The notes: generated by a model not told the origin, from the sequence alone. A stretch of 64,000 nucleotides of DNA from a virus (IMGVR_UViG_2929656146_000003:1-64000); one strand, 5' to 3'; shown: positions 7,290-49,303, counted from the stretch's first letter. Translations and numbers: made by a program.

Positions 7290-7489
7290 GCGCCCCATTG
7301 AACATCAGCGCGGAGCAGATGAGAGAGCTCGCCGCAGCCCTGGATGCCATGAGCGAGATGACCCGGACCACCGGTGTCGACCTCACTCCGAATGGCCGCC
7401 GACAGATCGGCATCGCGGACAACATGCTGTCCATCATCTGGTCTGAGGAGGTTCGGGCCTACGTCATCGACGACCGGATTGGCGACTGA
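7286..7489 (+). CDS. Small hypothetical protein (67 aa) in the glycosylation operon
   Basis: AAGGAG RBS; ATGA overlap with GT2 stop. Confidence 0.7.
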   Translation: MSAPLNISAEQMRELAAALDAMSEMTRTTGVDLTPNGRRQIGIADNMLSIIWSEEVRAYVIDDRIGD

Positions 7490-7495
7490 TCGGAG

Positions 7496-34089: not shown

Positions 34090-34881
34090 ATGACGGGTAC
34101 TACGCTTGCCTGCGAGAACTGCGGAACCAACTATGTCCGCAGGCCCAGCGGAGCTGGAAAGTACTGCTCTCACCCCTGCTACATCGCAGCGAAGAAGAGA
34201 ACGGCCACGGCGAAGTGCGGGCAGTGCCGGAAGGACTTCACACACAAGGCGCGCCTGTCGCCCAAGTTCTGCTCGCGGGCCTGCGCAGCCAACAGCTACA
34301 GGAAGACCGAGACCAGGAACTGCGCCTACTGCGCTGCGGCCTTTTCGAGGGTCCCTACTGCGATCGGGAAGTACTGCTCCGACACCTGCAAATACGCAGC
34401 CCGACGCAAGGACAACCCTGCAGTCCGGCGCATGAGGTATGCGCCGGGACATCCGCTTGTCTTGACTGCGCCATATGTCCCTGAACACCGGGCGGTCCTC
34501 TTCGAGAAGATCGGACCCGGGCCTCACCCATGCCACCATTGCGGGGACTCGGTGGAATGGACGCCTGGTGGTCGAACCGGGCAAGGGGTGCTCGTAGTCG
34601 ACCACCTTGACCGCAACCCGATGAACAACAGCTCTGACAACCTCGTGCCGTCCTGCTCGCGGTGCAACGTGCTCAACGCAGATCGCGCGGTGACTGACGG
34701 GGAGAGCTACCGAAACGTGGGCGGGCGGAGGACCCGGCTTCGCGGCCTCCCACGGAACTGTGAGTACTGCGGCCAGGGGTTCGTGACGTGGACGATGAAT
34801 CCTGGCGAGGGGAAGGGCCGGTTCTGTTCGCGGTCGTGTGCTCGCCGGAAGCCGATGGCGGATGGGCCGGGCGCAACATAG
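34090..34881 (+). CDS. Free-standing HNH endonuclease with multiple Cys zinc-finger repeats
   Basis: 'VVDHLDRNPMNNSSDNLVPSCSRCN'; repeated CxxC...KYCS/KFCS; antisense to late genes. Confidence 0.9.
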   Translation: MTGTTLACENCGTNYVRRPSGAGKYCSHPCYIAAKKRTATAKCGQCRKDFTHKARLSPKFCSRACAANSYRKTETRNCAYCAAAFSRVPTAIGKYCSDTCKYAARRKDNPAVRRMRYAPGHPLVLTAPYVPEHRAVLFEKIGPGPHPCHHCGDSVEWTPGGRTGQGVLVVDHLDRNPMNNSSDNLVPSCSRCNVLNADRAVTDGESYRNVGGRRTRLRGLPRNCEYCGQGFVTWTMNPGEGKGRFCSRSCARRKPMADGPGAT

Positions 34882-35027
34882 GTCGGGCATGGCCCCTCCT
34901 CGGCAGGTAGTACGGTGCCGGGTGGAGGGACCCGGGTGGCTTGGTCTATCGGAGCACAACCGGGTTCGGGTCCTGGAAACGCCGAAGCCCCGCCCGGTGA
35001 AGGGGGGGCTTCATGGACTGGGCGCGG

Positions 35028-35321
35028 TCAGGCGTCGGGCGCCCACTCGGGCTGGTAGTTGGGGTGGTCGCGGTACGGCATGGCGAGGATAGCCAGTGTC
35101 TGGTTCGCGAGCCAGTGACCGTGGTCCTCGTAGGCGAGGACGTGGTTGCAGGTTGCGATGATGCGCCGCTTGGCGTCGACCTCGGCCAGCACCCGTAGGT
35201 GGTGACCTGGGGCGCCCGGTTCGTTGTACTCGGAGTACCCGTTGTCCCCCCACGGGCCCTGTGCGAACTGCTCGTCCTCGTCGAGGCGGGCGTTCATGAA
35301 CGCCACGAGGTCAGCACTCAC
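35028..35321 (-). CDS. DUF6221-like protein
   Basis: 'LVAFMNARLDEDE...VLAEVDAKRRII...LAMPYRDHPNYQPEW'. Confidence 0.75.
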   Translation of the reverse strand: MSADLVAFMNARLDEDEQFAQGPWGDNGYSEYNEPGAPGHHLRVLAEVDAKRRIIATCNHVLAYEDHGHWLANQTLAILAMPYRDHPNYQPEWAPDA

Positions 35322-35605
35322 AGCCCCAGCTCCCCATACGGGTAGTCGTACGGGCGAAGCGCCTCGGTGAGCGCCTCGTGCAGAGTGGGCTGTGGCAGGG
35401 TAGCGCTGATCTCGGGGTTGAGTTCCTTGACGATGGCTTCGCCGAGGGACCTCAGCAGGTCGGCCTTCATCCACTCCTGGTACTGCTGGTCCTGATGCCA
35501 CAGCTCAACGCTGGCGAAGGTCTGTGCCTGAAGCCGCTTGCCGTTGACCTCGACGACGGTCCTGAGGGCCACCATGTCGGGCGGGGTCGTACTTCCGTCA
35601 GTCAT
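35318..35605 (-). CDS. Hypothetical protein
   Basis: Coupled ORF with typical codon usage. Confidence 0.7.
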   Translation of the reverse strand: MTDGSTTPPDMVALRTVVEVNGKRLQAQTFASVELWHQDQQYQEWMKADLLRSLGEAIVKELNPEISATLPQPTLHEALTEALRPYDYPYGELGL

Positions 35606-35796
35606 CGGGGGAACACGTCCGGCAGCACTGGAGCGAACTGCAGGCTGGCCTGCCGGAGTGGCTCCATGGCGGCGGCCAGGTCACGCAGGGCCTTCGCGGC
35701 GACGAGTTGCAGCGGCGTGGGATTGGGTGCGGGGTGGTGGTGTCGGCCGAGTTGGCGGAGGGTCCGGTCGGTGCTGGGGTACGGGCGGTGGCTCAT
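35602..35796 (-). CDS. Hypothetical protein (64 aa)
   Basis: ATGA overlaps at both ends. Confidence 0.55.
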   Translation of the reverse strand: MSHRPYPSTDRTLRQLGRHHHPAPNPTPLQLVAAKALRDLAAAMEPLRQASLQFAPVLPDVFPR

Positions 35797-36158
35797 GCGG
35801 TCACCGTCGCTACTCCATGGCAAGGTCCACACATGGGCACGTCTACCCGGCCTGTTATCTCCGAGTACCTCGGCACCGTCAGGCCCGGTACCGCCTGTCC
35901 GGTGCAGGTCACGTTGGGCTGATCGCGGTGGAGGTCGCACAGGCAGTGGCATCCGCCGATTCCGGAGAGTGCCTCGTTCTCACGCCGGAGGCGGTCGAGT
36001 TCCTCGGGGTGCTGTTCGAAGTACTCGATGGTGGGGCGGAGGGTTTCGTACGCCTGGGCGATAGTTCCGACCGCGTGATTGAGAACGGGGCGGAGCGCCT
36101 GGCTTACGGCGTTGATCGCGGCTCGGAGTTCCTGAGGGAAGGGCTGCTCACTGCTCAT
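35793..36158 (-). CDS. Hypothetical zinc-binding protein
   Basis: GAGAGG RBS; 'CHCLC...C...CGPC'. Confidence 0.65.
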   Translation of the reverse strand: MSSEQPFPQELRAAINAVSQALRPVLNHAVGTIAQAYETLRPTIEYFEQHPEELDRLRRENEALSGIGGCHCLCDLHRDQPNVTCTGQAVPGLTVPRYSEITGRVDVPMCGPCHGVATVTA

Positions 36159-36217
36159 GGGTTCATCCTCTCGTGGGAGGCCCGCCCGTGGTGAGAACTG
36201 GGCGAGCCCCTCTTCTA

Positions 36218-38188
36218 TCACTCCTCGGCACCGGGCAGGTAGAACTGCTCGGCCTTGCCGGCCTTGCGTGACTGCACACCGTGGGTCTTCCACAGGTCGA
36301 GGGCCCGGCGGACGGTGTCCCGGCTACCGAACGGCCCCTCTTCGACCAGGCGTTCCTTCGTGGCGTAGCCCTCCTCCTCGCATAGCTGAAGGAAGACCCG
36401 GTACAGGTCGATCCACTCGTCTCGACCGACCATGGTGCCGTCCGGGTAGACGGGCGGCGGCGGACCAACCGGCCGGGCCGGGGCGGGCTTGAACAGGGAC
36501 GCCTGAACTCCGCCCCCGACGGGCCGGGTCTGCGCCGGGGCGGCGGCGTGCAGGTGCGCCACATCTGCGGCGATGTCCAGGTCCGTCACATACTCGGCCC
36601 GGCACTTCGGCGGATCCGTCAACGGCATCTCCGGGCAGCCGATGTAGAACTCGCCTGGTCGGGTGAGCTTCTCCGGCGTGAAGCCGTTGCTCTTGCAGCC
36701 CTGCCCGAAGATGAACACGCTGTGCCCGGCCTCGCCGACCCTGGTCGAGATGCGGTTCGCGTAGTTACCGCGGGCGTCGCTGGACCCGCCGAACACCTTC
36801 GCGGACGGCTGCTGCGTCGCGGACAGGAACATGATCCCCATCGAGCGGGCGATCGCCAGGGCGGACTCGTATGTCGTCGCGATGTCCTGCTCGGGCGGGC
36901 CCATCTCCGGGTCCAGCTTGCGGAGCTCCGCCTCCTGCTTGCGGAGTTCCTCGTCCTGCCGGATCAGCTCGGCGAGTTCGTCGGTCACGACGATCCATGC
37001 CGGGCCGTGGACGCCGGGGATCCACTTGCGGACGGGCTCGCGGCCGGCAGCCATCTCCCTCTTCGACAGCTCCTCCAGGTAGGCGCCACGGCGGTCGCAC
37101 TCCGCGCGGATGTACTGCAGGAGCTCGCGGGCCTCCTCGGCGGTTCGGGCGAGCCTGCGCATCTTCGGCTCCCACGGGCCGAGTTCCACGGCGCCAGGCT
37201 TCATATCGATGCCGAACAGCTCGACGTGCTTCTTCTTCAGCAGCTTCTTGATGATCAGGTTGATGATGCCGGACTTGCCCCAGTCCGATGCGCCGGCGAC
37301 GAGGGTGTGCCGGTACATGACGGTCAGCAGGACGGGCTGCCCGTACTCGGTCCAGCCGAGCCGGATCGGCTTGGTGATGTCGTCGGAGTCGTCGTCGGCG
37401 TACGGGATGACGCGGTCGTGGAACGGGCCGCCCGGGCCCCGGGGCGTCGACTGCTCTTCGGTGCTGCTGGACGCGGAGGCCTTCAGGGCGGCCTGGCCCC
37501 CCTGGTGCAGCTGGACGTCGACGGAGGCGTTGGCCTTCGCCGTGGCGCTGGCTTTCCCCGGCAGCGCCTTGTGGTCCTTGCGGTGCTGGATCAGCCACGG
37601 CACGTACACCGCGTACGCGGCGCCGGTGGTGACCGCTGCGGCGGTGAGGGAGACACCGCCAGGGCCGGTGCCGACAGCGGTGGCGACGTCGGCGAAGGTG
37701 AGCGTCAGGCCGGCTCCGGCCCGTGTCAGCATCTCGTCCTTCTTCTCTACCCCGGCGGCGGTGACCGCTGCACCCAGGACGGCAAGGCCGGCGTACGCGG
37801 CGGTTCCCCAGCCTCCGACACCGGCGAGGTACTGCCACCAGCCGAGACCGGTGACGGCGCCGACGGTCATGGCGGGGGCGAGCTCGACGCGGTACCGGAT
37901 GACGAGGGCGCTGGCCTGGTTGGCGACGGCCACGCAGGCGGCGAGGAACCGCCTGGGCAGGGCTGGCCGGGTCTTCTGGACGACGTAGACGGAGCCCTCG
38001 ACCACCGCCGTCGCGGGTGACGACGAGGCCCCAGTGGACTCGTCGTTTCCTGTTTCCGCAGGTCGCGGCTCTGCGATGGTCGTCGTCATCGGCATCGTCG
38101 GCGTGATCGTCGCGTTGTCCTGCCGCTGGGGTCGGGGGAGGAAGGGGAGGATCTGAGCCCCGTCGGCCGGGGGCAGGTACTGGGCCAC
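36218..38188 (-). CDS. traB: TraB-type FtsK/SpoIIIE conjugative DNA translocase
   Basis: N-terminal TM helices; Walker A 'HTLVAGASDWGKS'; 'GIDMKPGAVEL'; Walker B 'VVTDELAEL'; 'ARSMGI...ATQQP'; C-terminal wHTH-like region. Confidence 0.88.
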   Translation of the reverse strand: MAQYLPPADGAQILPFLPRPQRQDNATITPTMPMTTTIAEPRPAETGNDESTGASSSPATAVVEGSVYVVQKTRPALPRRFLAACVAVANQASALVIRYRVELAPAMTVGAVTGLGWWQYLAGVGGWGTAAYAGLAVLGAAVTAAGVEKKDEMLTRAGAGLTLTFADVATAVGTGPGGVSLTAAAVTTGAAYAVYVPWLIQHRKDHKALPGKASATAKANASVDVQLHQGGQAALKASASSSTEEQSTPRGPGGPFHDRVIPYADDDSDDITKPIRLGWTEYGQPVLLTVMYRHTLVAGASDWGKSGIINLIIKKLLKKKHVELFGIDMKPGAVELGPWEPKMRRLARTAEEARELLQYIRAECDRRGAYLEELSKREMAAGREPVRKWIPGVHGPAWIVVTDELAELIRQDEELRKQEAELRKLDPEMGPPEQDIATTYESALAIARSMGIMFLSATQQPSAKVFGGSSDARGNYANRISTRVGEAGHSVFIFGQGCKSNGFTPEKLTRPGEFYIGCPEMPLTDPPKCRAEYVTDLDIAADVAHLHAAAPAQTRPVGGGVQASLFKPAPARPVGPPPPVYPDGTMVGRDEWIDLYRVFLQLCEEEGYATKERLVEEGPFGSRDTVRRALDLWKTHGVQSRKAGKAEQFYLPGAEE

Positions 38189-38281
38189 GAGGGGCTCCTC
38201 TCGGTACTGGGATGGGGTGGTCTGAGTGCTCGCGGCGGCCGCCCAACCGCAGGGGTTGGGCGTCACCGGCAGGCCGTCAGA

Positions 38282-39649
38282 TCAGCCGTCCGTCCCGGTG
38301 ATCGGCCGGACGTTGTCGGACCCGAGCGCGGCAAGCTCGGGGTGCTCTCGCTCGATCTCCAGCCGGCGAGCGTTCGCGAACTGGCGGGACTTGGGGAGCT
38401 TCGCGGCCTTCAGGGCGGCCACCATCTCGGACTCCAGGGGGCGCCTTCCAAGGTCGGCGTAGAGCGCCTTGATGGCGTCTCGTGCGGCGTCCCGTGGCGC
38501 CGCCGTGGGGCGCCCTGAAGTGGTGGGCCGGGGCGCCTTCGTGGCGCTACGAGGGCGGGCGACGGGGCGCTTCTGGGGCGCTTCAGAAGCGGCATTGGTG
38601 GCGCTCTGACGGGCGCTGTCATAGCGCTCTCGGGGCGCCATAGCGTCGACTGCCGTGGCGCTCTGAGGGCGCTTCACAAGGTCGACGGTGGCGTCATGCG
38701 TGGCGCTCCCGTGGCGCCCCGAAGCCGCTGCCTGAGGCGCTTCCGTGGCGGGTGCGAGGGCGCTTTCGATGGCGCCCCGAATCACTGGTTGGGGCGCCAC
38801 GATGCCGGACGCCATGGCGCTTTCGGGGCGCTCTACGTAGATAGGCGGGAGCGCTTCCGTGGCGCCTTCATGGCAGTCGACGGTGGCGTCCTGAGGCGCC
38901 TCGATGGCGGCCTGTCCGTAGGCCTCGTGCAGCGCTGCGCCGATCGGCTTGCCAAGCTTGGCGAGCCTGATGGCGAGCTGCTCGGGCTTGGTGGCCTGCC
39001 TCTTCCATCCGCGTCCGTAGCGGATCCTGAGCGTGGTGCGGAAGACCTTCGACTCCTGTTCCATCAGGATCACTTCGGTGTAGGAGCGGATGTTCCACAT
39101 GCGCATGCGGCGCCACACGCGGTAGGTCGGCCACGGGGCGAGGAACCAGCGGGGCAGCGGCGGGTTCTCGTAGTAGGCGCCGCTGCTGATCTTCGCCATC
39201 CGGCCCACGGCGTGCCTGCCAGCCTCGACGATGAGGACGAACAGGATGGGCATGGTGGCGTGCATGCCTACGGCGATTTCGTCACCCCAGGAAGCGGCGA
39301 CGTTGAAGGCGATCGTGGCGCCGGTGAGACCCCAGGCCGCGTAGCGCAGTAGGGGGAACGGCATGCGGAAGAAGGTGAGGAGGAGGTCAAGGGCAAGGAG
39401 GGTACCGATGCCGACGTCGACGCCGAGGGGGAAGACGCGGGCGAAGTCGCCGAAGTCCTTCTTGATGGCGAGCCTGACAACGGCGTTGTAGGAGCCTGCG
39501 AAGCCGATGCCAGCGATGGAGATGGCGCCGGCAACGATGGCGCCGATGGTGGCTTTCTGCGGCTTGGTGAGCTCGCGCTTGGTGCGGGCGTCGAGGCCCA
39601 GCGCGGGAGTGGTGGTGAGCTCAGTCTCGGTGTTTGCGATCGGGTTCAC
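38282..39649 (-). CDS. DUF2637 membrane protein (Spd/transfer-accessory type)
   Basis: 'IGFAGSYNAV', 'FPLGVD', 'TIAFN', 'GMHATMP', 'RWFLAPWPTYRVWRRM'; directly upstream of TraB. Confidence 0.82.
   Translation of the reverse strand: MNPIANTETELTTTPALGLDARTKRELTKPQKATIGAIVAGAISIAGIGFAGSYNAVVRLAIKKDFGDFARVFPLGVDVGIGTLLALDLLLTFFRMPFPLLRYAAWGLTGATIAFNVAASWGDEIAVGMHATMPILFVLIVEAGRHAVGRMAKISSGAYYENPPLPRWFLAPWPTYRVWRRMRMWNIRSYTEVILMEQESKVFRTTLRIRYGRGWKRQATKPEQLAIRLAKLGKPIGAALHEAYGQAAIEAPQDATVDCHEGATEALPPIYVERPESAMASGIVAPQPVIRGAIESALAPATEAPQAAASGRHGSATHDATVDLVKRPQSATAVDAMAPRERYDSARQSATNAASEAPQKRPVARPRSATKAPRPTTSGRPTAAPRDAARDAIKALYADLGRRPLESEMVAALKAAKLPKSRQFANARRLEIEREHPELAALGSDNVRPITGTDG
38440..38900 (+). 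repeat. Dense polar GGCGCY hexamer array inside the DUF2637 gene (candidate clt/TraB recognition locus)
   Basis: About 22 GGCGCY copies in about 460 bp by hand count, in all three codon phases. Confidence 0.7.
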
Positions 39650-39668
39650 GTCTGGGCTCCTTCCTGGG

Positions 39669-40004
39669 TTAGCGAGTGGTCGGTGAGTGGTTGGGGGCGA
39701 TGTGGTGGGCGCTGGTGGTGAGTACCCACAGTGCTGCGGTGGCGAGCGCGCGGAGTGTGGCGGCGAGGGTAAGGAGGCTGCCGGCCGCGATCGCGCGGAG
39801 GGTGTGGTGGTGGCCGGCGATGAGCTGCGGAAGGTCGAGGCGCAGGGCGGTGCCCGCGAGGGCGAGCACCGCGTACTGGGCGAGGATCGCGGTGGTGACT
39901 GCGGCGAGGGCGGGGGCGGGGAGCAGGGTGGCGGCGAGCACCGCGAGCGCTAGGGCGGTGGTGGTGAGGGCCTGCTGCTCGGCCGGGGCGGCGGTGCGGG
40001 CCAC
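39669..40004 (-). CDS. Small hydrophobic membrane protein (Spd-like context)
   Basis: Ala/Leu-rich TM segments; GAGAGGAG RBS. Confidence 0.65.
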   Translation of the reverse strand: MARTAAPAEQQALTTTALALAVLAATLLPAPALAAVTTAILAQYAVLALAGTALRLDLPQLIAGHHHTLRAIAAGSLLTLAATLRALATAALWVLTTSAHHIAPNHSPTTR

Positions 40005-40050
40005 GACGGTCTCCTCTCTGGGTTAGGCGGGTGGGTCCGGGGCTCGGCTC

Positions 40051-40281
40051 CTACTTCGGGGTGACGACGAGGTCGAGCACGTTCCCGGGCACCTTCAGCA
40101 GGGTGGCGAGGTCGGCAGCGAGCGAGCCCAGGGTGTGCGGGATGTCGACCCTGGTGACGATCTGCTTCTGGTTGATGCCGGTGCCTGCGCTGTCGCGCAG
40201 CTCGGTGATGAGGGTGACGGCGTAGTTGCCCGGCGGAACCTGGGTACCGGCTCCGTTGCGGCTGATCGACATGGTGGTCAT
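40051..40281 (-). CDS. Hypothetical protein (76 aa)
   Basis: AAAGGA RBS; co-oriented in the transfer arm. Confidence 0.65.
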   Translation of the reverse strand: MTTMSISRNGAGTQVPPGNYAVTLITELRDSAGTGINQKQIVTRVDIPHTLGSLAADLATLLKVPGNVLDLVVTPK

Positions 40282-40296
40282 GGCGTGGTCGTCCTT

Positions 40297-40830
40297 TCAG
40301 GTGGTGGCTGCGGTGCGCAGCAGGTTGTGGATGTCGGCCTTCGTGCGGCCGGGCTCGTCGTTCCAGGTGTCGACCGGGATCGGGTGGCCGGCGCGGCCGA
40401 GGGCGTTGCCGATGAGGAGGCGGGCTTGCCAGGCGGTGGCGGGGGTGCCGTATCCGTGGGCGAGGACCTGGAGGTGGGCGCCGAGGACGCACACGGCGCC
40501 GGTGGCGTCCCAGAGGCCGCCCTGGGTCCAGCCGTGCTGGGTGATGTAGCGGTCCATCAGCTGCAGGTGCTCTCTCGCGGTGACTTGGATGGTGGGAGCC
40601 GGGCGACGGAGGATCCGGTCGGTGAGGGTGCGGGCGGGTTGGGGGTGGCCGGCCCACCAGGGCGGGGTGGTGCTGCCGTGGGCCGGGATGTGCACCGTTG
40701 GGGCGGTGCGCAGCGGGGTGGGTCCGCCGGTGGGGATGACGGTTTTGAGGTAGGCCTCGATCTCGGCGACCAGGAGGGGGCCGTACAGGTCCACGTCCAG
40801 GTCGAGCGGGGTGGTGATGGTGGCGGGCAT
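40297..40830 (-). CDS. DUF6197-like protein
   Basis: 'HGWTQGGLWDATGAVCVLGA...WNDEPGRTKADI'. Confidence 0.7.
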   Translation of the reverse strand: MPATITTPLDLDVDLYGPLLVAEIEAYLKTVIPTGGPTPLRTAPTVHIPAHGSTTPPWWAGHPQPARTLTDRILRRPAPTIQVTAREHLQLMDRYITQHGWTQGGLWDATGAVCVLGAHLQVLAHGYGTPATAWQARLLIGNALGRAGHPIPVDTWNDEPGRTKADIHNLLRTAATT

Positions 40831-41137
40831 CTTGGGGGTTCTCCTCTCCTGGTCAGCGAGCGTGCGATGGGTGCGGTCCGTGCGAGTGATGCGATACCGT
40901 GCACGGCCCGCCGGGAGGTCAGGCCCGGTGCCGGCCGCATCGCGACAGTGCGGCCGAGCCGTAGCCGACGCCGGAGGTGACGACGCACAGGCAGGCATCG
41001 CAGACGGCTCCGGGGATGGGCAGGCTCTCGGTGGCGTGCGCGACCCGCATCGGCTGGCCGCAGCAGGTGAGGTTGTCGTAGGCCTCGGGGGTGAGTGATG
41101 CGCCGTCGGCGAGCTGCGTGAGTGGGGTGGCTATGGC

Positions 41138-41311
41138 TCAGTCCTCCAGGTCGGTGGGGTACTCGCCGAGGCGGGCGGTCTCGGCGAGCGAGCGGTGTTC
41201 TTGTGCCTGTGCGAGGCACTCGGTCCGGCCGGGGCCGTCGGCCTGGGCGGCGAGAAGCTTCAGGGCCGCGGCTTCCCTCAGGTGGTGGGCCACTGCGGCG
41301 GCGCGTTTCAT
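41138..41311 (-). CDS. Small hypothetical protein (57 aa), not in the ORF track
   Basis: MKRAAAVAHHLREAAAL...EYPTDLED after a purine-rich leader. Confidence 0.55.
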   Translation of the reverse strand: MKRAAAVAHHLREAAALKLLAAQADGPGRTECLAQAQEHRSLAETARLGEYPTDLED

Positions 41312-41367
41312 GTCGATGTCCCCCTGCTCCGGTGCGGTGTGTGTGAGGGTGCGGGCCTTGGCGTGGG

Positions 41368-41640
41368 CTAGAGCGCGGCGCGCAGGTCTGCGAGGGCCTG
41401 GTCGGCGGCCCGCTGGCTGGGGGTCAGGATGCTGCGCGCGGCGCCGTGGATCGTGGCGGGCAGCAGGGCGCGGATGTCGCGCTCGTTGACGCCGGCTGCG
41501 ATCGCGGCCTTGTAGGCCTCGCAGGCGTCGGCGACGGACTGGCTGTAGGTGGCGTCGGCCGCGGCGTCGGCCCGGTAGGCGGACTCGCTGCGGGCGACAG
41601 CGTCGACAACGGTTCGGATGAGGTGCTGCTGGCTGGCCAT
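41368..41640 (-). CDS. Hypothetical protein
   Basis: AGGAGG RBS. Confidence 0.7.
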   Translation of the reverse strand: MASQQHLIRTVVDAVARSESAYRADAAADATYSQSVADACEAYKAAIAAGVNERDIRALLPATIHGAARSILTPSQRAADQALADLRAAL

Positions 41641-41695
41641 GGTTCCTCCTGGGAGTGAGGCGGCGGGCTGGGCGCGGGGCTCTCCTGGTCGGCGT

Positions 41696-42154
41696 TCAGG
41701 CCGCGCGGAGCAGCTCGCGGGTGGCCGGGTACATGTCGAGCTGCGCGGCCAGGTAGCGCTGGGCGACGTCGTCCTGGATGCCGGCGCTGGCGGCTGCGAC
41801 GCGGTCGTGGAGGTCGGAGCTGAACCGGGCGGAGAGCTCCTCGTCGTGGCGGTGCTGGTCGGCGCCGGTCCACTGCGGGGTGTCGGTGAGCGGGCCGTGA
41901 GCGGACCAGATCTGCCAGGACGGGGTCTGGCCGGCCATCAGCTGGCCCGTGTAGACGCCCCACTTGGCTTTGCGGTCGAACTGGTAGTCGCCGTGGACGA
42001 GGCCCCCGCTTCCGGAGCTTCCGATCGGGGCGATTGTGTAGTAGGTGACGCCGAGCTTGGCGACGGTGTTGACCCACTGGTCGTGTTCGCGGCGGGCCTC
42101 GGCGGCGTAGCGCTGGCTGCGGGCACTGTCGATGGCGCGGTTGAGGAGCCTCAT
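41696..42154 (-). CDS. Hypothetical protein
   Basis: ATG at 42154 after AAGAAGGG; high GC3. Confidence 0.7.
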   Translation of the reverse strand: MRLLNRAIDSARSQRYAAEARREHDQWVNTVAKLGVTYYTIAPIGSSGSGGLVHGDYQFDRKAKWGVYTGQLMAGQTPSWQIWSAHGPLTDTPQWTGADQHRHDEELSARFSSDLHDRVAAASAGIQDDVAQRYLAAQLDMYPATRELLRAA

Positions 42155-42249
42155 ACTGAGGTTGCCCTTCTTGCTCGTTGGCGGGTGGTGGGGTGTCCGG
42201 GGCGGCCGGCTGTGCTTGGCGGCTGATGGCGGCCGCCCCGGGGGCGGGG

Positions 42250-42483
42250 CTAGGAAACGTGCTCGGAGGCGTCGGACTTGGCTTGGGCGACTGCGGCATA
42301 CCAGTTGGCCTGGTCGTTGAACAGACGCTTGCCGGGATCGCTGGCGTTGTTCCAAGTGCAGGTGCAGAACGCCTCGATGGTGTTGCCGTCGGGGCAGGCT
42401 GTCTCGGTGACCACCGCGGTGTGCTGACCGTTGCGGAACGCGGCGATGTCACCGCGGCCTGGGTAGATTTCGTGGGGAAGCAC
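42250..42483 (-). CDS. Hypothetical protein with CxC...H motif
   Basis: AAGGAGG RBS. Confidence 0.65.
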   Translation of the reverse strand: MLPHEIYPGRGDIAAFRNGQHTAVVTETACPDGNTIEAFCTCTWNNASDPGKRLFNDQANWYAAVAQAKSDASEHVS

Positions 42484-42526
42484 TGCTTTGGCCTCCTTGC
42501 GGCCAGGTCTGGGCTGGGTTGCGTGG

Positions 42527-42826
42527 TCAGGACCAGTGCCAGACCGAGCGGGTGCGGGCCGCCTCTGCGGCGGCTGCGCCGAGTTCGTAGCAGGCCTGCT
42601 GCCATGTCGGTGAGGCGAACGGGGTGAGGGCCTTGAACGCGGCGCCCATGCGCGCGGCCTGGTCGGGCTGGATGTCGAAGGTGTCTCCGCTGCCCCGGTT
42701 GAACAGTGGGCTGATGGCGGCCCAGTCGCTTCGTGGGGCGATCTGCTTCAGGTACTCGCCGAGTTCGGTGTGCGCACTGTAGGAGCGGGTCCCGCCGGTC
42801 TGGTTGTGGTCCCAGGACCAGCCCAT
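42527..42826 (-). CDS. Hypothetical protein
   Basis: Coupled ORF, 'MGWSW...WHWS'. Confidence 0.7.
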   Translation of the reverse strand: MGWSWDHNQTGGTRSYSAHTELGEYLKQIAPRSDWAAISPLFNRGSGDTFDIQPDQAARMGAAFKALTPFASPTWQQACYELGAAAAEAARTRSVWHWS

Positions 42827-43029
42827 CAGTTCTTCCGAAGCTGTTCGGGCCGGTAGGTGCGCTCTCCGAGTACCGCCTCGACGAGTCGGTTGTCGATGCC
42901 CTTCACAGAGACCAGCTGGCCGACGTCATCGGTCTGGACCTGGACGACGGTGCCGGTGCGGCCGAGGGTCTTGGGGTTCTGCCCGTCGGTGTTGATCACG
43001 GTGACGCTGTCACCCTCACGAACGGCCAT
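42826..43029 (-). CDS. Small SH3/KOW-like beta-barrel protein
   Basis: 'VREGDSVTV...GRTGTVVQV...YRPEQL'. Confidence 0.6.
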   Translation of the reverse strand: MAVREGDSVTVINTDGQNPKTLGRTGTVVQVQTDDVGQLVSVKGIDNRLVEAVLGERTYRPEQLRKN

Positions 43030-43220
43030 CAGGCGGCAGCCCGGTAGACGTCGACGTAGCCAGCGGGCAGGTGGAGCTCCTGCGCGGCGAACGCGAGGAC
43101 CTCCGCGTCGGTGACCGCACCGTACGTGTGGACGGGCTTGAAGACCGGGCCGGCGAACTCGGGGTGCCGGACGATCAGGCGGGCGGGCTCGCCCAGGATC
43201 CGGTCGGTGAAGTTCTTCAT
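43029..43220 (-). CDS. Hypothetical protein (63 aa)
   Basis: AAGGGA RBS; coupled. Confidence 0.6.
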   Translation of the reverse strand: MKNFTDRILGEPARLIVRHPEFAGPVFKPVHTYGAVTDAEVLAFAAQELHLPAGYVDVYRAAA

Positions 43221-43235
43221 GATGTCCCTTCAGAA

Positions 43236-43382
43236 TCAGACGTAGAGGGCGTAGGCGATGCCGCTGAGGATGAGGATCACGAGGATCACTACGGGGATGA
43301 GAGCAGCCAGGCGGTGGGCCTCCTCCCTTGCGCTGTCCTGAGGGGTGATGAGGTATCGGAGGTAGCTGCCATCGCCGTCCAT
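43236..43382 (-). CDS. Small single-pass membrane protein (48 aa), not in the ORF track
   Basis: MDGDGSYLRY...LIPVVILVILILSGIAYALYV; AAAGG RBS. Confidence 0.6.
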   Translation of the reverse strand: MDGDGSYLRYLITPQDSAREEAHRLAALIPVVILVILILSGIAYALYV

Positions 43383-43393
43383 CAGGTTGCCTT

Positions 43394-43585
43394 TCACGCG
43401 GCGGCCGGGTAGCGGATGGTGTCCGCGCCGAGCCGGTAGAGGAGGGTCGTGGCCAGAGCCTCGGCCTCGTGCTCGGCAGCGTCGATGACGGCGTCGCGTT
43501 CGGCGGGGGTGGCGTCGGGGCGCAGTCGGCCGAGGGCGATCTGCATGCTGGCGATGCCGTCGCGCTGCTCCTGCAAGGTGGCCAT
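43394..43585 (-). CDS. Hypothetical protein (63 aa)
   Basis: AAAGGA RBS then MATLQEQ. Confidence 0.6.
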   Translation of the reverse strand: MATLQEQRDGIASMQIALGRLRPDATPAERDAVIDAAEHEAEALATTLLYRLGADTIRYPAAA

Positions 43586-43598
43586 CAGACGGTTCCTT

Positions 43599-43838
43599 TC
43601 AGAGTCGGGCGGCGGCCTCACGGACCGCCTGGACGGTGTCGTACGGGGAGTCCTCCAGCGCGAAGACCTCCGCGCTGGGCAGTGCGGCGAGCATGCGGGC
43701 CGCGTGGGTGACGCATCCGTTCGCGTTGATGTACGGGTTCCACTGGACGACATGGGCCACGACCGGGCCGTCACACGGGGGTTGTGCCTGCTTGCTGTGG
43801 TTCGCGGCGGACTGGGCGGCGTCGCAGTAGGCGCTCAC
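43599..43838 (-). CDS. Hypothetical Cys/His protein
   Basis: Coupled ORF. Confidence 0.55.
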   Translation of the reverse strand: MSAYCDAAQSAANHSKQAQPPCDGPVVAHVVQWNPYINANGCVTHAARMLAALPSAEVFALEDSPYDTVQAVREAAARL

Positions 43839-43980
43839 TCGGTGTCCTCGTCGAACGGTTCGGTGAGGATGTCGATGTACGGGGTTCCGTCTGCGGCGGT
43901 CATGAGCGACAGGAGCTCGATCAGGCCGGCGCTGTTGGGGTCGTCGATGTCGACGGGGACCGGGTCACCGTTGCCGGCCA

Positions 43981-44160
43981 TCAGACGATGTCCAGCGGGG
44001 TGCGGACCTGGGTGGCTTCGAGGTCGGTGATCTCCTGGACCTCCGCCCGGAACTGCTGGGCCAGGGTCTCGCGCAGGCCCTTGTCCTTGGCGGCGAGGAA
44101 CTGCCTTGCCGTGGTCCGGGCCTTCGTTTCGAGGGCGGCGATCTGCTCGTCGAGGGTCAC
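43981..44160 (-). CDS. Small coiled-coil protein
   Basis: AGGAGG RBS + GTG; TLDEQIAALETK... Confidence 0.6.
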   Translation of the reverse strand: MTLDEQIAALETKARTTARQFLAAKDKGLRETLAQQFRAEVQEITDLEATQVRTPLDIV

Positions 44161-44478
44161 TGCTTGTCCTCCTTCTTGATCGGGTCGATGGGCTTCCGCG
44201 GCCGCGGGATCCTGGGGATGACCGGCCGGTTGTCCCAGTCGGTCACTTCGTGGGCTGCGGGGGGAGGGGCGGGAGGGGCTGGTGGCCGTAGCCGCCGTTC
44301 GTGGAGTGGTCGCCGGCGCCGTCGGCGAAGGCACGGTCGTAGTGCATGGGGTCCTCCTTGCTGGGGGTGATGGTCCGCTGGCCGATCGGGGGAGCCCCGA
44401 ACGCCGGCGAGGGGCGGGACGGCTGCGGGCCGGGTTCAATGGGGTCGAGGCCGGGCCAGCCGTTGTGCGGGTCAGGCA

Positions 44479-44706
44479 TCAGGCGGCGTCCGCCAGGTCG
44501 TGCATCGCCTGGATCTTGGCCGCGACGACCGCGCGGGGGATGCGGATGGCACCGCCGCGACCGGCCTGGCCGCGGGACCACTGCTTGCCGTGGCGGATCG
44601 CTTCGAGCTCTCCGTCCTGCACCCAGCGGTAGATGGTGGGGATGCTGACCCGGAGCGCTTTCGCGACCTCCTTGACGGTCAGGACCGGTGGACTCTCGGG
44701 CAGCAT
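44479..44706 (-). CDS. Excisionase-like HTH (HTH_17) DNA-binding protein, first gene of the leftward arm
   Basis: 'LTVKEVAKALRVSIPTIYRWVQDGELEAIR...IRIP'; AAGGAGG RBS. Confidence 0.88.
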   Translation of the reverse strand: MLPESPPVLTVKEVAKALRVSIPTIYRWVQDGELEAIRHGKQWSRGQAGRGGAIRIPRAVVAAKIQAMHDLADAA

Positions 44707-44751
44707 GCTGAAGCCCTCCTTCCGAGGGGTTCCTCGTTGGCTGATGGACAC

Positions 44752-44791
44752 AACTATATAGGTTCTCTTGAGAAGCTGCAATGTTCTCAGG
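44752..44791 (-). promoter_or_regulatory. Leftward promoter/operator (TTGCAG-N17-TATAGT), copy 1 of a 40-bp element
   Basis: 34/40 identical to the reverse-oriented 47421..47460; AT-rich; GAGAA...TTCTC dyad. Confidence 0.8.
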
Positions 44792-44878
44792 CTGTGTTCG
44801 AGCTACCAGGGCCGCAACCTTGTGCCTTAACTTGAAAGGCGACAAGGTTTCCCGCTCTGTGCCAAAAGGAGGCGACTG

Positions 44879-45421
44879 ATGGCTGACGAAGGCCAGCTGG
44901 ACGCGTCGGCTGCCTACCTCCGAGCACCCACCAGCGGACACCGCGATGCATGGAGCGAGCTCGCACGCGCATCTGGGCGGCAGGGTGGTCAACGGCTGAT
45001 TGAAGTGGGTGAAGTCGAGGCGCCAGAAGGCGTCGCCTGCGCGCTCCGTTTGCCCGTAGGGGCGCTCGTCTCGATCCGGCGCAGGGTGATCACGCTTGAT
45101 GGCCGTGCAGTGGAAGTCGCAAGTTCCTACTACCCGGCCGACATAGCGGCGGGCACTCCGCTGGCGAGACCCGCACGCATTCGAGGCGGGGCTGTGGCGG
45201 TGTTGGCAGCCCTCGGGCACCAACCAGTGGTTGCTCACGAGGAAGTGGCGGCCAGGCCAGTGTCAGCAGCTGAGCTGGAGATCCTTGACGCGAACCCGTC
45301 TGACTGGGTCCTCGATCTCCTGCGAATTGCTCTGGATGTGACTGGGCGCCCTGTCGAGGTCTCTCTGATGACCATGCTGGCCGTTGGCCGGAAGCTCCAC
45401 TACACCGTCGAGATCGGCTGA
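44879..45421 (+). CDS. Stand-alone UTRA-domain protein (no HTH)
   Basis: 'VSIRRRVITLDGRAVEVASSYYP...RIRGG...GRPVEV'; paralog of the downstream GntR C-domain. Confidence 0.85.
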   Translation: MADEGQLDASAAYLRAPTSGHRDAWSELARASGRQGGQRLIEVGEVEAPEGVACALRLPVGALVSIRRRVITLDGRAVEVASSYYPADIAAGTPLARPARIRGGAVAVLAALGHQPVVAHEEVAARPVSAAELEILDANPSDWVLDLLRIALDVTGRPVEVSLMTMLAVGRKLHYTVEIG

Positions 45422-45425
45422 GATC

Positions 45426-46229
45426 ATGAAAGAACACGACATCAGTACCACCAGTGAGGCACCGGACAAGCCGACTCTTGAGCAGGAAAAGGGCGCCTGG
45501 CCGCAACACGAACTCCTGGCGAGCTACCTGCGCGACGGCATCCTGTCCGGCGACTTCCCTGCCGGCAGCCTGCTGCCGTCGACGAGGCTCCTGCGAGAGA
45601 AGTTCGGGGTTGCACCCCAGACCATCAAGCACGCAAATGACCAACTGGCCAGCGAGGGCCTTGTCCGCAGCCACCGAGGCAAGGGCATCATCGTGCTTGA
45701 TCGCCGCCCACAGACCGTGGTGCCTGCGGCGACCAAAAGGCCGGCAAACCCGGGTGACCCGTATCGCTGGATCACCGAAGCATCGAAGAGTGGGCTGCAG
45801 GGAGCGAGTGTCCTTCTCGACGTAGACGAGGTCGTTCCGCCCAAAGACGTTGCGCGGGCGCTCGGACTTGGGGCGAGTGGCGTGGCCCTTCGGCGCGAGC
45901 AAGTCCTCACGCTCGACGGCGAGCCGGCCGAATACGTGAGGGCGTACTACCCTGTGGATATCGCGCGAGGCACTGAGATCGCCGTTCGCAAGCGGATCAG
46001 GGGCGGGACGCCGCGGGTCCTTCAGGACCTTGGGTATCCGCCGCTCAGGTGTGTGGACACTGTTTCGGCGCGTGTTCCGACGCCGGACGAGGTCAAGGCC
46101 CTGGGTACGCCCACCAAGGTTCCAGTCCTCAGGACACTGCGCGTGGTTCACAGCGTTGACGACAGAGTGGTGGAGGTCGCTGTGATGGCGAAGGCAGGCC
46201 ACCTCTACGAGCTGCAGTACGACTTCTAG
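45426..46229 (+). CDS. GntR/HutC-family repressor (KorSA/TraR-like)
   Basis: wHTH 'LRDGILSGDFPAGSLLPSTRLLREKFGVAPQTIKHA...GKG' plus UTRA domain. Confidence 0.9.
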   Translation: MKEHDISTTSEAPDKPTLEQEKGAWPQHELLASYLRDGILSGDFPAGSLLPSTRLLREKFGVAPQTIKHANDQLASEGLVRSHRGKGIIVLDRRPQTVVPAATKRPANPGDPYRWITEASKSGLQGASVLLDVDEVVPPKDVARALGLGASGVALRREQVLTLDGEPAEYVRAYYPVDIARGTEIAVRKRIRGGTPRVLQDLGYPPLRCVDTVSARVPTPDEVKALGTPTKVPVLRTLRVVHSVDDRVVEVAVMAKAGHLYELQYDF

Positions 46230-46292: not shown

Positions 46293-46679
46293 CTAGCCGA
46301 GTTCTCCGAGGAGCCCGAATGAGCGGGCCAGGACTGTGTTCAGCTCGGCCATCTGGGGAGGGCGCAGGCGACCAGCGAAGCGTTCGAGGCGGGACTGGTC
46401 GATGGTCATCACCTGAAATCCCAGGATGTCACCGGCATCGGGGAGGGGGTCACCAGCCTGAAGGGTCACCGTGATGGGGGAGGTTTCGCGAACCCTGGTT
46501 GTCATCGCCGCGACGGTCACCGTAGGCATACGGCTATTGAACGAGTCCAGCGAGATCACGACGGCGGGCCGATGGCCGGCCTGCTCTGAACCGCGTGCTG
46601 GGTCGAAGTCCACCCAGTAGATGTCTCCCCGCTGAGGGGACGGCGGCCGCCTGAGAGGCGGAGGGCTCGGTACGGGCAC
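46293..46679 (-). CDS. mazF: MazF/PemK family endoribonuclease toxin
   Basis: 'RGDIYWVDFDPARGSEQAGHRPAVVIS...VAAMTT...QVMTIDQSRL'. Confidence 0.92.
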   Translation of the reverse strand: MPVPSPPPLRRPPSPQRGDIYWVDFDPARGSEQAGHRPAVVISLDSFNSRMPTVTVAAMTTRVRETSPITVTLQAGDPLPDAGDILGFQVMTIDQSRLERFAGRLRPPQMAELNTVLARSFGLLGELG

Positions 46680-46688
46680 TCGGACAGC

Positions 46689-46943
46689 TTAGTACTCGGG
46701 CCACTCCGCCGAACCCGCATCCCATGCGGCCGCAGCCCACTCTGCCGACTCGTCGGCGAATACTGCGAACGCATCTCCCAAGCCATCATCGGGGGACGGC
46801 GTGGCGGTGGCGAGTTCCACCTGTGGAGAGCTTTGCAGGGAGAGGGACAGCCAGGGGAAGCACTCCGCGAGGCTTGCTGACGGTGCGCCGACAAGTGGGT
46901 AAACCACCTGGGCGGAGTTGCTCTGAGAAGGTGCGGTGCTCAT
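46689..46943 (-). CDS. Putative antitoxin (acidic Trp-rich C-terminus, no obvious DNA-binding domain)
   Basis: Directly upstream of MazF; 'FADESAEWAAAAWDAGSAEWPEY'. Confidence 0.65.
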   Translation of the reverse strand: MSTAPSQSNSAQVVYPLVGAPSASLAECFPWLSLSLQSSPQVELATATPSPDDGLGDAFAVFADESAEWAAAAWDAGSAEWPEY

Positions 46944-47290
46944 GGCTGTTCCCCCTGTGCCTCGTCGTAGATCTCGGCCGCCGACTCCAGGATCTTGATG
47001 AGCTCCTGGATACGGTCTCGTGTCAGGACGAATCTGCCAAGAGGTTTCACGGGCAGCTTATGCCCGGATTCGGCCAACCGCTCGACGATCTCTTCGTCCG
47101 AGCCGAACAGTAGGGGTGGCTCAAGGATCCCCATGGTCAGGTAGATGGAGTCTGGCCGGCCTGACGCGTTTGGAACGCCGAGCGCAACGGCGAACTGGTT
47201 GGTCGGTTGAGCAGGGCCGGCGGGGTCTTCCCACACCAGTCGGAACTTCGCGGTGTGTGCCGTGGTGCTCGTGATGGGGGGCTTGGTCAC
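46940..47290 (-). CDS. DUF3467-like protein coupled to the antitoxin (possible chaperone)
   Basis: 'PTNQFAV...IYLTMG..EPP...RFVLTRDRIQELIKIL...IYDEAQG'; ATGA overlap. Confidence 0.6.
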   Translation of the reverse strand: MTKPPITSTTAHTAKFRLVWEDPAGPAQPTNQFAVALGVPNASGRPDSIYLTMGILEPPLLFGSDEEIVERLAESGHKLPVKPLGRFVLTRDRIQELIKILESAAEIYDEAQGEQP

Positions 47291-47420: not shown

Positions 47421-47460
47421 CCCGAGAACATTGAAACTTCTCAATAGAACCTATAAGGTT
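47421..47460 (+). promoter_or_regulatory. Rightward promoter/operator (TTGAAA-N17-TAAGGT), copy 2 of the 40-bp element
   Basis: Inverted near-copy of 44752..44791; followed by a hairpin at 47483..47507. Confidence 0.8.
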
Positions 47461-47617: not shown

Positions 47618-47812
47618 ATGATCGCCGTCACCGTCGCCCGCCCCACCGAGAACACCGCCGTCGGCCTCATGCCGGTCCGTGAGCTCGGCAACCTCGGCGC
47701 CTACCACCTCGCCCGGTTCGCCCTCAAGACCGGGGACATGTACGGCGCCCGCCTGTTCACCAAGAGCTACCTGCGCGCCCTGGCCGGCGGCAAGGTGGGG
47801 GAGTCGCTGTGA
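47618..47812 (+). CDS. Hypothetical protein
   Basis: Coupled small ORF. Confidence 0.6.
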   Translation: MIAVTVARPTENTAVGLMPVRELGNLGAYHLARFALKTGDMYGARLFTKSYLRALAGGKVGESL

Positions 47813-48018
47813 TCACCATGACCGCCCCGCGGATCACCGCCGGCCTCGTCCCCGTCGAGTTCGGCAACCCCGGGCCCGCGATGCACCCCGTGCAGATCGA
47901 CGCCGTCACCCTGATCGTCGGCTACGACCCGCGGGTCCTCGACGCCGACCTCGTTACCACGATCCTGCAGTCCGTGCACGGCGCCGACCTCGTCATCGTC
48001 GAGGAGGTGCCTGAGTGA
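47809..48018 (+). CDS. Hypothetical protein
   Basis: GTGA coupling, GGGGAG RBS. Confidence 0.6.
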   Translation: MITMTAPRITAGLVPVEFGNPGPAMHPVQIDAVTLIVGYDPRVLDADLVTTILQSVHGADLVIVEEVPE

Positions 48019-48212
48019 AGCTCCTCCAGTCCCTCCACAAGGACCAGCCTGGCGCGGCCGCCCAGATCGCCGCGACCGCGGACGACGCCCGCACGCTCGG
48101 CTTCGAGAACGTCGCGACGCACTACGAGCCCCAGACAGGCCACCACACCGTCACGGGTGACCTGCCCGCGGCGACGGCGCAGCGCACCGTCGACCGGATC
48201 CTCGGCCGCTGA
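48015..48212 (+). CDS. Hypothetical protein
   Basis: GTGA coupling, GAGGAGG RBS. Confidence 0.6.
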   Translation: MKLLQSLHKDQPGAAAQIAATADDARTLGFENVATHYEPQTGHHTVTGDLPAATAQRTVDRILGR

Positions 48213-48325
48213 GGCCTGCTTGGGCCGCCCCGTGATGGGGCGGCCCCTCGTTCACCCTCACCTTCGTGTCCAGCTGGAGAAGCCGTGTTCCTGCGTACCC
48301 CTGCCGCCGTACTGGCGGTGCGCTG

Positions 48326-49303
48326 ATGGGGATCAAGCTGGTCGAAGAGGTCATGGACTGGTGTCCGGATGATGTGACGCCAGCGCAGCGCTGGTGTTTG
48401 ACGGTGTTGGCGCGGGATGCGAACGACGCGACCCGGGAGACCTTTCACGGCCCGGAGCATCCCGAGATCCTGCGCCGGGTGCGGTTGTCGGCGAAGCGGT
48501 GGGAGGCGGTGCGGTCGTCGTTGTTGAAGCGGGGGTTGATCGAGCCGGTGTCAGGTGGGTATCGGGGGCGTGCGGGGCGGTATCGGATCGCGTGCTTGTT
48601 CGCTCCGTGTGTGATTGGGGACGGTCGAAAGACCCCTGGTTTTCGGGGGGCTTTCGGTGGCTACCAGCCGGTAAGGGGGCAGAAAGACCCTCAGGTTCCG
48701 GGGGTCAATCACTCTGAAAGCCCCCCGGAACCTGAGGGTCTTTCGTCGGAAAGCCCCCTGGAACCCGAGGGGCAATCGGCCGAAAGACCCCCGGAAACCA
48801 GGGGTCCTACTCCTCCTTCTTTCTCCTCCCAACCACCCTCCTCCCGACCCGCGCCTCCCGAGCCGCCCACCGGACCCGAGCCGGACGACGGACGGGAGGG
48901 CGGGGGGACCGCCTCACGGCGGCAGGACAACCCCGCCTACGCCGCCCTCGCCCGCATCGCAGCCCGCCACCACCAACTCGCCCTCGGCGAAAACGAGATC
49001 GCCACCCTCGCCCCACTCGTCGCCCCCTGGCTCCAGCGGACCACCGAGGCCCGCATGGAGCACGCGATCACCACGGGCATGCCCGCTACCGTCACCAACC
49101 CTGTCGGGTTCCTGCGCCGCCGGCTCGTCGAGAAGCTCCCTCCGCCGCTCGCCGCCGTCCCCGACGAAGAACGCTGCGGTCGCCCGAACTGCGACCCGAT
49201 CACCCACATGGTCACCCTCCCCGGAGGCGACCAAGCGCACTGCGCCACCTGCCACCCCACCGGGCGCGCCCTCGCCCGCCGAGCCCAAGGAACCGCCGCA
49301 TGA
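48326..49303 (+). CDS. Phage replication initiator (lambda O-like organisation)
   Basis: N-terminal wHTH-like region, internal iterons, 'NPVGFLRRRL', coupled to DnaB. Confidence 0.8.
   Translation: MGIKLVEEVMDWCPDDVTPAQRWCLTVLARDANDATRETFHGPEHPEILRRVRLSAKRWEAVRSSLLKRGLIEPVSGGYRGRAGRYRIACLFAPCVIGDGRKTPGFRGAFGGYQPVRGQKDPQVPGVNHSESPPEPEGLSSESPLEPEGQSAERPPETRGPTPPSFSSQPPSSRPAPPEPPTGPEPDDGREGGGTASRRQDNPAYAALARIAARHHQLALGENEIATLAPLVAPWLQRTTEARMEHAITTGMPATVTNPVGFLRRRLVEKLPPPLAAVPDEERCGRPNCDPITHMVTLPGGDQAHCATCHPTGRALARRAQGTAA
48627..48810. repeat. Five quasi-palindromic 29-bp iterons, probable replication origin
   Basis: GAAAG(A/C)CCC...GGG units start at 48627, 48682, 48716, 48749, 48782. Confidence 0.85.

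Follow-up and report, generated by a model that had tools for sequence, protein, structure and literature searches.

A TraB-like translocase in the early-left operon of an 84-kb element

We analysed a 64,000-nucleotide (nt) stretch of viral DNA (IMGVR_UViG_2929656146_000003:1-64000, called the window throughout), and in particular an arm in which genes for a TraB-like DNA translocase, a DUF2637 membrane protein and a series of small proteins run leftwards from a divergent GntR/UTRA regulator. The window corresponds to G000:C4:330874-394873, minus strand, on a contig of 729 kb; the genome measures 9.1 Mb and has a G+C content of 70%. Kitasatospora is the name on all best protein matches, and the host is a Kitasatospora-like actinomycete. 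Genes were called by third-position G+C (GC3), raw lists of open reading frames (ORFs) being noisy at 70% G+C, and the minus strand carries nearly every gene between about 10.7 and 44.8 kb of the window. The arm and the regulatory region beside it contain the following features (window coordinates; aa, amino acids; HTH, helix-turn-helix; evidence in brackets):

34090-34881, plus strand: ORF between the arm and the late genes (only sub-threshold HNH and zinc-finger matches)
34960-36160, minus strand: four small ORFs downstream of traB (GC3 calls)
~34975-35012, minus strand: G+C-rich terminator-like hairpin (-35.7 kcal/mol, z -2.6)
35028-35321, minus strand: DUF6221 ORF (Pfam)
36218-38266, minus strand: traB, TraB-like double-stranded DNA translocase, 682 aa (Pfam, PHROG, motifs, AlphaFold, Foldseek, BLASTP)
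38282-39649, minus strand: DUF2637 membrane protein, 455 aa, C-terminal half of low complexity (Pfam, 99 bits; phrog_29003, 4e-80)
38444-38899, minus strand: 22 GCGCC motifs with a purine-rich 5' flank and an A/C-C 3' flank, inside the DUF2637 coding sequence and at least 180 bp upstream of the traB start
39669-44160, minus strand: 15 GC3-supported small ORFs of the early-left operon (GC3 calls)
40297-40998, minus strand: DUF6197 ORF (Pfam)
42527-42826, minus strand: DUF7739 ORF (Pfam)
44479-44751, minus strand: HTH_17/excisionase-family DNA-binding protein, first gene of the leftward operon (Pfam, 50.8 bits; TIGR01764, 46 bits)
44757-44788, minus strand: left copy of a 32-nt promoter/operator element, directed towards the traB operon and placed immediately ahead of the HTH gene
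44879-45421, plus strand: stand-alone UTRA-domain protein, 180 aa, no HTH, strong ribosome-binding site (Pfam UTRA, 71.8 bits)
45384-46229, plus strand: GntR+UTRA regulator, the domain pair of pIJ101 KorA and pZL12.80 (Pfam)
46293-47290, minus strand: PemK/MazF-type toxin (46293-46679) and two small upstream ORFs, between the promoter copies (Pfam, 94.9 bits)
47424-47455, plus strand: right copy of this 32-nt promoter/operator element, directed towards the replication operon
47618-50679, plus strand: early-right operon of three small ORFs, a 345-aa ORF and a DnaB-type helicase (49300-50679) (GC3 calls, Pfam)

The translocase matches the Pfam FtsK_SpoIIIE profile with 29 bits (cut-off 24) and phrog_1358, a family filed by PHROGs under 'moron/host takeover'; one source gene call begins 26 codons later. 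Both Walker motifs are intact (A, GASDWGKSG; B, IVVTDE), in agreement with an initial annotation of this DNA, made by a model from the sequence alone, which had reported such a translocase here; the FtsK_SpoIIIE and DUF2637 profile searches suggested there both returned matches (29 and 99 bits). An AlphaFold model (mean predicted local distance difference test score, pLDDT, 72.5; N-terminus disordered) predicts an N-terminal membrane-association region of five hydrophobic helices (residues 103-229, pLDDT 80-88), an FtsK-type ATPase core (285-575, pLDDT about 90) and a C-terminal winged helix (610-680), in which three helices and a hairpin at 619-676 reach a pLDDT of at least 90. Foldseek puts TcpA, the conjugation coupling protein of pCW3, and the FtsK motor at the top of its matches (E 2.7e-14 to 1e-12), and pIJ101 Tra aligns in BLASTP with 24% identity over 234 aa (E 1e-8). 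Neighbours in the Atlas are actinobacterial FtsK_SpoIIIE proteins that end in MarR_2/IclR/FtsK_gamma-type domains.

Across an alignment of 39 translocase homologues 82 columns are invariant, the Walker residues included. A profile of this family scores 44.5 bits with a small FtsK-like protein encoded near tyrosine integrases in the same genome, 36.3 bits with chromosomal FtsK and 28.5 bits with pIJ101 Tra. Thus, judged by these profile scores, the translocase is a separate lineage of the FtsK/Tra superfamily. Its nearest plasmid matches come from only 5 plasmids of ~130 kb, with 37-43% identity over the ATPase. Small FtsK-like genes lie near tyrosine integrases at two other places in the genome (C6:289-304 kb and C2:71-78 kb), which look like ordinary integrative and conjugative elements of actinomycetes (AICEs).

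Upstream of traB, a DUF2637 gene or a DUF2637-like homologue is also present in the related genomes G005, G156, G392, G338, G376 and G120; in G338 the pairing with the translocase rests on a Pfam match of 24.5 bits and in G376 on a near-identical 334-aa protein. This supports a recurrent DUF2637-then-translocase pair in this phage family, with DUF2637 as the putative conserved upstream partner of the translocase. The domain is itself more widespread, with matches in 348 plasmid records, in phage VWB and, as a DUF2637-like gene, in Gilgamesh. In VWB the adjacent gp25 and gp26 are not FtsK-like, and in an S. canus plasmid DUF2637 stands beside ParA. Our genome has 4 DUF2637 copies, none near the other small FtsK-like genes, of which two (C6, C2) are those near tyrosine integrases. 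DUF2637 had initially been linked to the Spd proteins of Streptomyces plasmids. This link is not borne out, given that pIJ101 SpdB has no Pfam match and that the DUF2637 copies of the genome do not accompany its other FtsK-like genes; homologues of SpdA, SpdB or KilB were not seen.

The DUF2637 gene, the 15 small ORFs, the excisionase-like HTH gene and the divergent GntR/UTRA gene are all located where the initial annotation had placed them. Apart from the DUF6197 and DUF7739 ORFs, the other 13 small ORFs of 39669-44160 matched no family. The leftward operon appears to end at the hairpin, four small ORFs past traB. The arm had been described as lying directly upstream of the late genes; in fact these four ORFs, the hairpin and the plus-strand ORF at 34090-34881 separate the two. 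Pfam and NCBIfam scans found no RepSA, RepAM or Prim-Pol in the arm, where most small ORFs are without a family and where a RepSA profile was not among the models used.

The whole window lies inside an integrated element of 84.06 kb (window -3072 to 80992). Its right end, beyond the window, carries the integrase:

79411-80940, minus strand: large serine integrase, outside the window, ~41 kb from traB and ~35 kb beyond the arm

This is the only large serine recombinase in the genome (single PF07508 match), and no tyrosine integrase (PF00589) matched on contig C4. To the right of the integrase, conservation of the DNA in relatives reaches only as far as window 80993, and in 5/5 fetched relatives the empty site links window -3073 directly to this point, with an overlap of a few bases. 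The 84 kb are bounded by a single att pair, with sharp junctions. One att pair together with empty sites joined end to end demonstrates that the insert is one 84.06-kb element. On the phage side, the ends form imperfect inverted repeats with a short shared core at the centre, an arrangement known from attP sites of serine integrases, and the target is the 3' end of a gene for a PLP (pyridoxal phosphate)-dependent decarboxylase. A tRNA scan found no tRNA, and the element is thus without a tRNA att site. Around the arm (33-48.5 kb) a search for att-like direct repeats gave no good ones, only repeat families of 65-80% identity at chance level; repeats bounding the arm alone had been named beforehand as the mark of an insertion. 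The claim that no integrase flanks the arm stands in so far as none lies in or beside it, although a serine integrase does serve the 84-kb element as a whole. With one serine integrase, one att pair and the same position in related prophages, the proposal that the arm is phage DNA and no AICE insertion is supported.

Integrase at one end, att junctions, an empty site and a set of packaging, head, tail and lysis genes are those of a temperate tailed phage. The intact head-tail-lysis module of the initial annotation is confirmed (TerL, SPP1-type portal, scaffold, HK97-type capsid, an ORF in tape-measure position and lysin), and the called structural, lysis, replication and integrase genes are all open. 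The late module comprises:

4039-34056, minus strand: late module, in order from upstream 148-aa and 966-aa proteins, small ORFs, TerL, head, tail, lysin
27949-29508, minus strand: TerL (phrog_38)
16319-20140, minus strand: 1273-aa ORF in tape-measure position, no family match
4289-5335, minus strand: Amidase_2 lysin (Pfam)

Two small ORFs upstream of TerL matched no family, and a terminase small subunit was not identified among the late genes. The 966-aa protein (30675-33575, minus strand) matches only a PHROG of unknown function (4.5e-99) and, below threshold, DUF1349; it is partly conserved in G338, G200 and G226, and pZL12 likewise has a large unknown protein beside tra. Between lysin and tail genes a plus-strand island (5536-10094) encodes a glycosyltransferase, a methyltransferase and an NAD-dependent epimerase. 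This island, conserved in G338, G200 and G226, may be a cell-wall- or receptor-modifying moron. Further genes of the element include a C5 methylase within the window and, beyond it, RecT, SSB and RuvC-like genes; ParA or ParB was not found among the subset of element proteins scanned. A megablast search of 23.5 kb against phages gave no match.

Regulatory island and GCGCC array

The 32-nt promoter/operator element has 2 matches in the window with 0 expected. The copies are identical at 29/32 positions, lie 2.6 kb apart and face outwards. By eye, each can be read as a -35/-10 pair with a short palindrome that overlies the -35-like hexamer, while a consensus sigma-70 scan of the regulatory region called no promoter. 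Where the initial annotation had the arm share its promoter with the phage replication operon, we thus find two near-identical copies, one for each direction, and the region has the look of an immunity region in which two early promoters, and not one shared promoter, are at work. The GntR+UTRA protein encoded between the copies is a candidate repressor of both early operons. The UTRA-only gene immediately precedes the GntR/UTRA gene, with which it overlaps, and its product may modulate or decoy the ligand response of the repressor.

A second feature concerns the DNA upstream of traB, where GCGCC, with a background of 4.1 per kb (window mean on that strand), forms the 22-copy array listed above. 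Spacings between the motifs are 11/12, 22/23 or 34 bp, i.e. multiples of ~11.35 bp, and at this period the Rayleigh R is 0.96, with 0/300 random sets as periodic. An extended 9-mer pattern has 25 matches in the window, 13 of them within the 430 bp of the array. The motifs use all three codon phases (7/9/6), which shows that the array is not a peptide repeat. In G005 the same motif recurs with the same phasing, in 19 copies and again in all three codon phases. An alignment of the two arrays, for which the G005 coordinates are imprecise, gives identities of 53/95 in the cores versus 241/465 outside them, without clear excess. The array probably binds a protein. Candidate roles are a transfer locus, iterons or a centromere; iterons inside a coding sequence have a precedent in pMEA300 RepAM, according to PMC2440964.

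K-mer clusters are found at the same place in other relatives as well. The one in G156 is a peptide repeat with a period of 6.0, that in G200 is a peptide repeat with 24/27 copies in one codon phase, and those in G392, G338 and G376 are not phased. We therefore rejected the notion of an array in every relative as one phenomenon. Two features are new in this element, the twin outward-facing promoter/operator copies and the phased 22-copy GCGCC array upstream of traB.

Distribution of the translocase among relatives

Full-length translocase homologues are present in 6/134 other genomes sampled from the same genus, with identities of 53-62% in tblastn and 76% for G167. Family-wide, 11/401 genomes, our own included, match at E 1e-30 or better. 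We fetched the loci around the translocase, 83-100 kb for four relatives and 40 kb for a fifth. In all five homologues placed in this way (G338, G392, G156, G376 and G005) the translocase lies between tail genes and DnaB, and the loci are collinear: tail genes, translocase, small ORFs, then three small genes and DnaB, followed in the four longer loci by SSB/RuvC-like genes at the far end. G338 has the whole virion module and the integrase in common with the 84-kb element. In G392, G156 and G376 the translocase keeps its place though head-gene queries found no match. One translocase-bearing relative is an 87-kb IMG/VR provirus. G005 carries the translocase twice with identical scores (C1:8485203 and C2:858181), which may reflect a duplicated chromosome end or an assembly duplicate.

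The alignment of 39 homologues led to relatives of the translocase in 52 viral contigs of IMG/VR. Among the 50 of these that were examined, CheckV rates 23 as at least 90% complete; direct terminal repeats are present in 9, and 11 are proviruses; DUF2637 matches in 20 and an HK97 capsid in 23. A tblastn search of the element's proteins against the 52 viral loci found few genes in common. A Streptomonospora plasmid, phiM2, has the terminase in common with the element, and no FtsK-like gene lies within 20 kb of this terminase on either flank.

To avoid selection on the translocase, a second set of relatives was chosen by the major tail protein, which matched in 12/141 same-genus genomes; seven of the 12 carry the translocase. 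At the same place G380 encodes a divergent FtsK-like protein of 753 aa that has an HTH at its C-terminus. G200, nearest to the element in its structural genes (TerL and capsid 80%), retains genes for DUF2637, HTH_17 and GntR and has two unknown ORFs in the traB position. A gene for a TROVE-domain (Ro60-like) protein occupies this position in G226 (L057:9200-10819) and G275 (L062:3216-4916). This comparison marks the translocase as a phage-owned cassette that can be exchanged within a mosaic early arm.

Possible functions and comparison with known systems

Membrane helices, an FtsK motor and a winged helix together form the architecture of plasmid Tra/TraB proteins, and a function in DNA transfer is proposed on this basis. 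The explanation that best accounts for the locus as a whole, to which we assign a probability of about 0.5, is that the arm is the early-left operon of an intact 84-kb temperate phage and encodes a DNA-transfer pump. Its two parts differ in strength. We are confident that the arm is part of the phage genome, while the odds that it mediates cell-to-cell transfer, as the domain architecture and the precedent of the plasmid-phage pZL12 suggest, are about even. In the proposed scheme the two outward promoter/operator copies flank a regulatory island of UTRA-only protein, GntR/UTRA regulator and MazF-type module. Once repression is relieved, the right copy would drive the replication genes, DnaB among them, and the left copy the HTH protein, the 15 small proteins, the DUF2637 membrane protein and the TraB-type pump. 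The membrane-anchored pump could then carry the double-stranded phage genome, once excised, through cross-walls or from one hypha to another in contact with it, as Tra/TraB proteins of Streptomyces plasmids do, and the phage would gain a virion-independent route beside packaging. More tentatively, and with the balance of our judgement against it, a broad family of temperate phages of mycelial actinomycetes might routinely use a TraB-type pump with a DUF2637 partner to drive the excised genome through cross-walls into adjoining hyphae and so to spread, as lysogen or as infection, independently of virions and receptors, with the GCGCC array as a cis-acting loading site.

Several observations weigh against a transfer function. 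In the tail-protein set, G296 keeps only a 119-aa C-terminal remnant of the translocase, and the prophages G200, G226 and G275 (3/12) have no FtsK-domain gene. Since the cassette is absent or replaced in such relatives, TraB is by this comparison dispensable for the phage group and not required in the phage life cycle. Close relatives lacking the block had been named in advance as a finding that would speak against the arm as phage DNA, and this was found in part: the three prophages are without an FtsK-like gene at this place, in the form of a cassette replacement without att scars in a mosaic arm. Nor did the GCGCC array, a candidate cis-acting transfer locus (clt), allow such a locus to be assigned. 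The repeat motif upstream of traB tracks the type of DUF2637 gene and not TraB, and G167, with a TraB 76% identical and a conserved recognition helix, nevertheless has a different repeat motif. No 8-mer is both common to and enriched near traB in all seven TraB-positive elements, where only generic G+C-rich 7/8-mers were recovered. Finally, by sequence comparison the similarity to characterised Tra proteins is remote, the FtsK-like protein pZL12.71c aligning with the translocase only around Walker A (E 0.003), and authors of Streptomyces phage papers suggest roles in replication or host development for FtsK-like genes.

The main rival, a serious contender to which we give somewhat less than even odds, is that the TraB-like pump and DUF2637 are phage genes with another job than genome transfer between cells. 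This job could be to exclude superinfecting phages, to block or handle DNA that enters the cell, to assist phage DNA replication or segregation at septa, or to interfere with host development. In addition to the views of the phage authors, the lack of a transfer locus and the replaceability of the translocase in close relatives, such a role is consistent with the PHROGs label and with DUF2637 occurring without an FtsK-like neighbour in VWB, in the S. canus plasmid and at three other places of our own genome. On the other hand, a membrane anchor, an FtsK motor and a predicted sequence-reading winged helix are the Tra/TraB architecture, publications connect the matching gene order of pZL12 with conjugal transfer, and dispensability is equally expected of an auxiliary spreading function.

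We consider it improbable that the arm is a fragment of an AICE or plasmid, captured by or inserted in the prophage as cargo and not part of the backbone. GntR/UTRA plus Tra is a hallmark of Streptomyces plasmids and AICEs, DUF2637 occurs in plasmid records and the cassette is exchangeable among relatives. Yet the profile scans and the repeat search showed no integrase, no att-like repeat and no replication gene of AICE type within or next to the arm, which holds the same position in five other prophages and has its promoter/operator duplicated at the phage replication operon. Moreover, relatives of the translocase occur in 52 viral contigs of varied type, and the nearest plasmid matches are limited to the 5 plasmids mentioned above. 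Less probable still is a defective prophage whose arm is a decaying leftover without present function. The remnant in G296 is an example of such decay, but in the present element the called genes are open, the att junctions are sharp and the invariant columns of the translocase family include the Walker residues.

If the transfer reading is true, phages of filamentous bacteria have a second, receptor-independent transmission route. This would change the view of host range, resistance and lysogen spread in antibiotic-producing actinomycetes and would blur the boundary between prophage and conjugative element.

Streptomyces Tra/TraB proteins, another of which is TraB of pSVH1, offer the first comparison. 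Like the translocase (682 aa), pIJ101 Tra (648 aa) has a weak FtsK_SpoIIIE match in Pfam and a C-terminal HTH (MarR_2), and pIJ101 KorA is a divergent GntR+UTRA protein as is the regulator here. In contrast, the replicon here is a phage, and while tra of Streptomyces plasmids is the first gene beside the regulator, the translocase gene is fifth from last in an operon of ~10 kb. GntR/UTRA plus Tra is described as the hallmark pair of Streptomyces plasmids and AICEs (PMC2440964); an AICE would have its own integrase and att sites around ~9-24 kb, which the arm does not. Among phages, gene 10 of Gilgamesh has 35% identity over the ATPase domain only, with the DUF2637-like gene ~68 kb away. FtsK-like genes are also annotated in the Streptomyces phages Geonosis, Jaresh and AndoPrime, according to the literature. 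A limited literature search found no link of phage FtsK-like genes to conjugation beyond papers citing pZL12.

The closest counterpart in organisation is pZL12/phage ZL12 (GQ919031, 90,435 bp), likewise a tailed-phage genome in the 85-90 kb size class. Its TerL (.67c) is followed by three genes, the FtsK-like 725-aa.71c, the 766-aa.72c, the 398-aa membrane protein.73c, small ORFs including a NUDIX gene, a divergent GntR+UTRA (.80) and rightward genes, which is the same layout as here; both thus combine a structural module, an FtsK-like tra gene and a divergent GntR/UTRA in one replicon. For the pZL12 tra gene and two neighbours a transfer function is reported, and they are cited as required for conjugal transfer (PMC3583192). 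According to the literature, pSLE1 (86 kb) is syntenic with pZL12 and has two integrases (PMC4487206), and pZL12 is called a singleton (PMC7157519). In contrast to the 84-kb element, which is integrated by a serine integrase, pZL12 is a circular plasmid with ParA/ParB. Similarity is almost nil: 8 called proteins match at E 1e-3, none of them in the arm and only one, a small protein upstream of TerL, in the virion module. Products.71c-.73c have no Pfam match, hence no DUF2637, and no repeat array lies beside pZL12 tra. On paper, therefore, the 84-kb element would work like pZL12 without being related to it in sequence; it integrates, whereas pZL12 replicates as a plasmid.

That pZL12 combines both modes and that Streptomyces phages have FtsK-like genes was already known. 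To the one case of pZL12 the present element adds that the layout recurs in an integrating phage family without sequence similarity to pZL12, that predicted complete phage genomes commonly encode relatives of the pump, and that a single phage lineage both gains and loses the cassette, providing natural plus/minus pairs.

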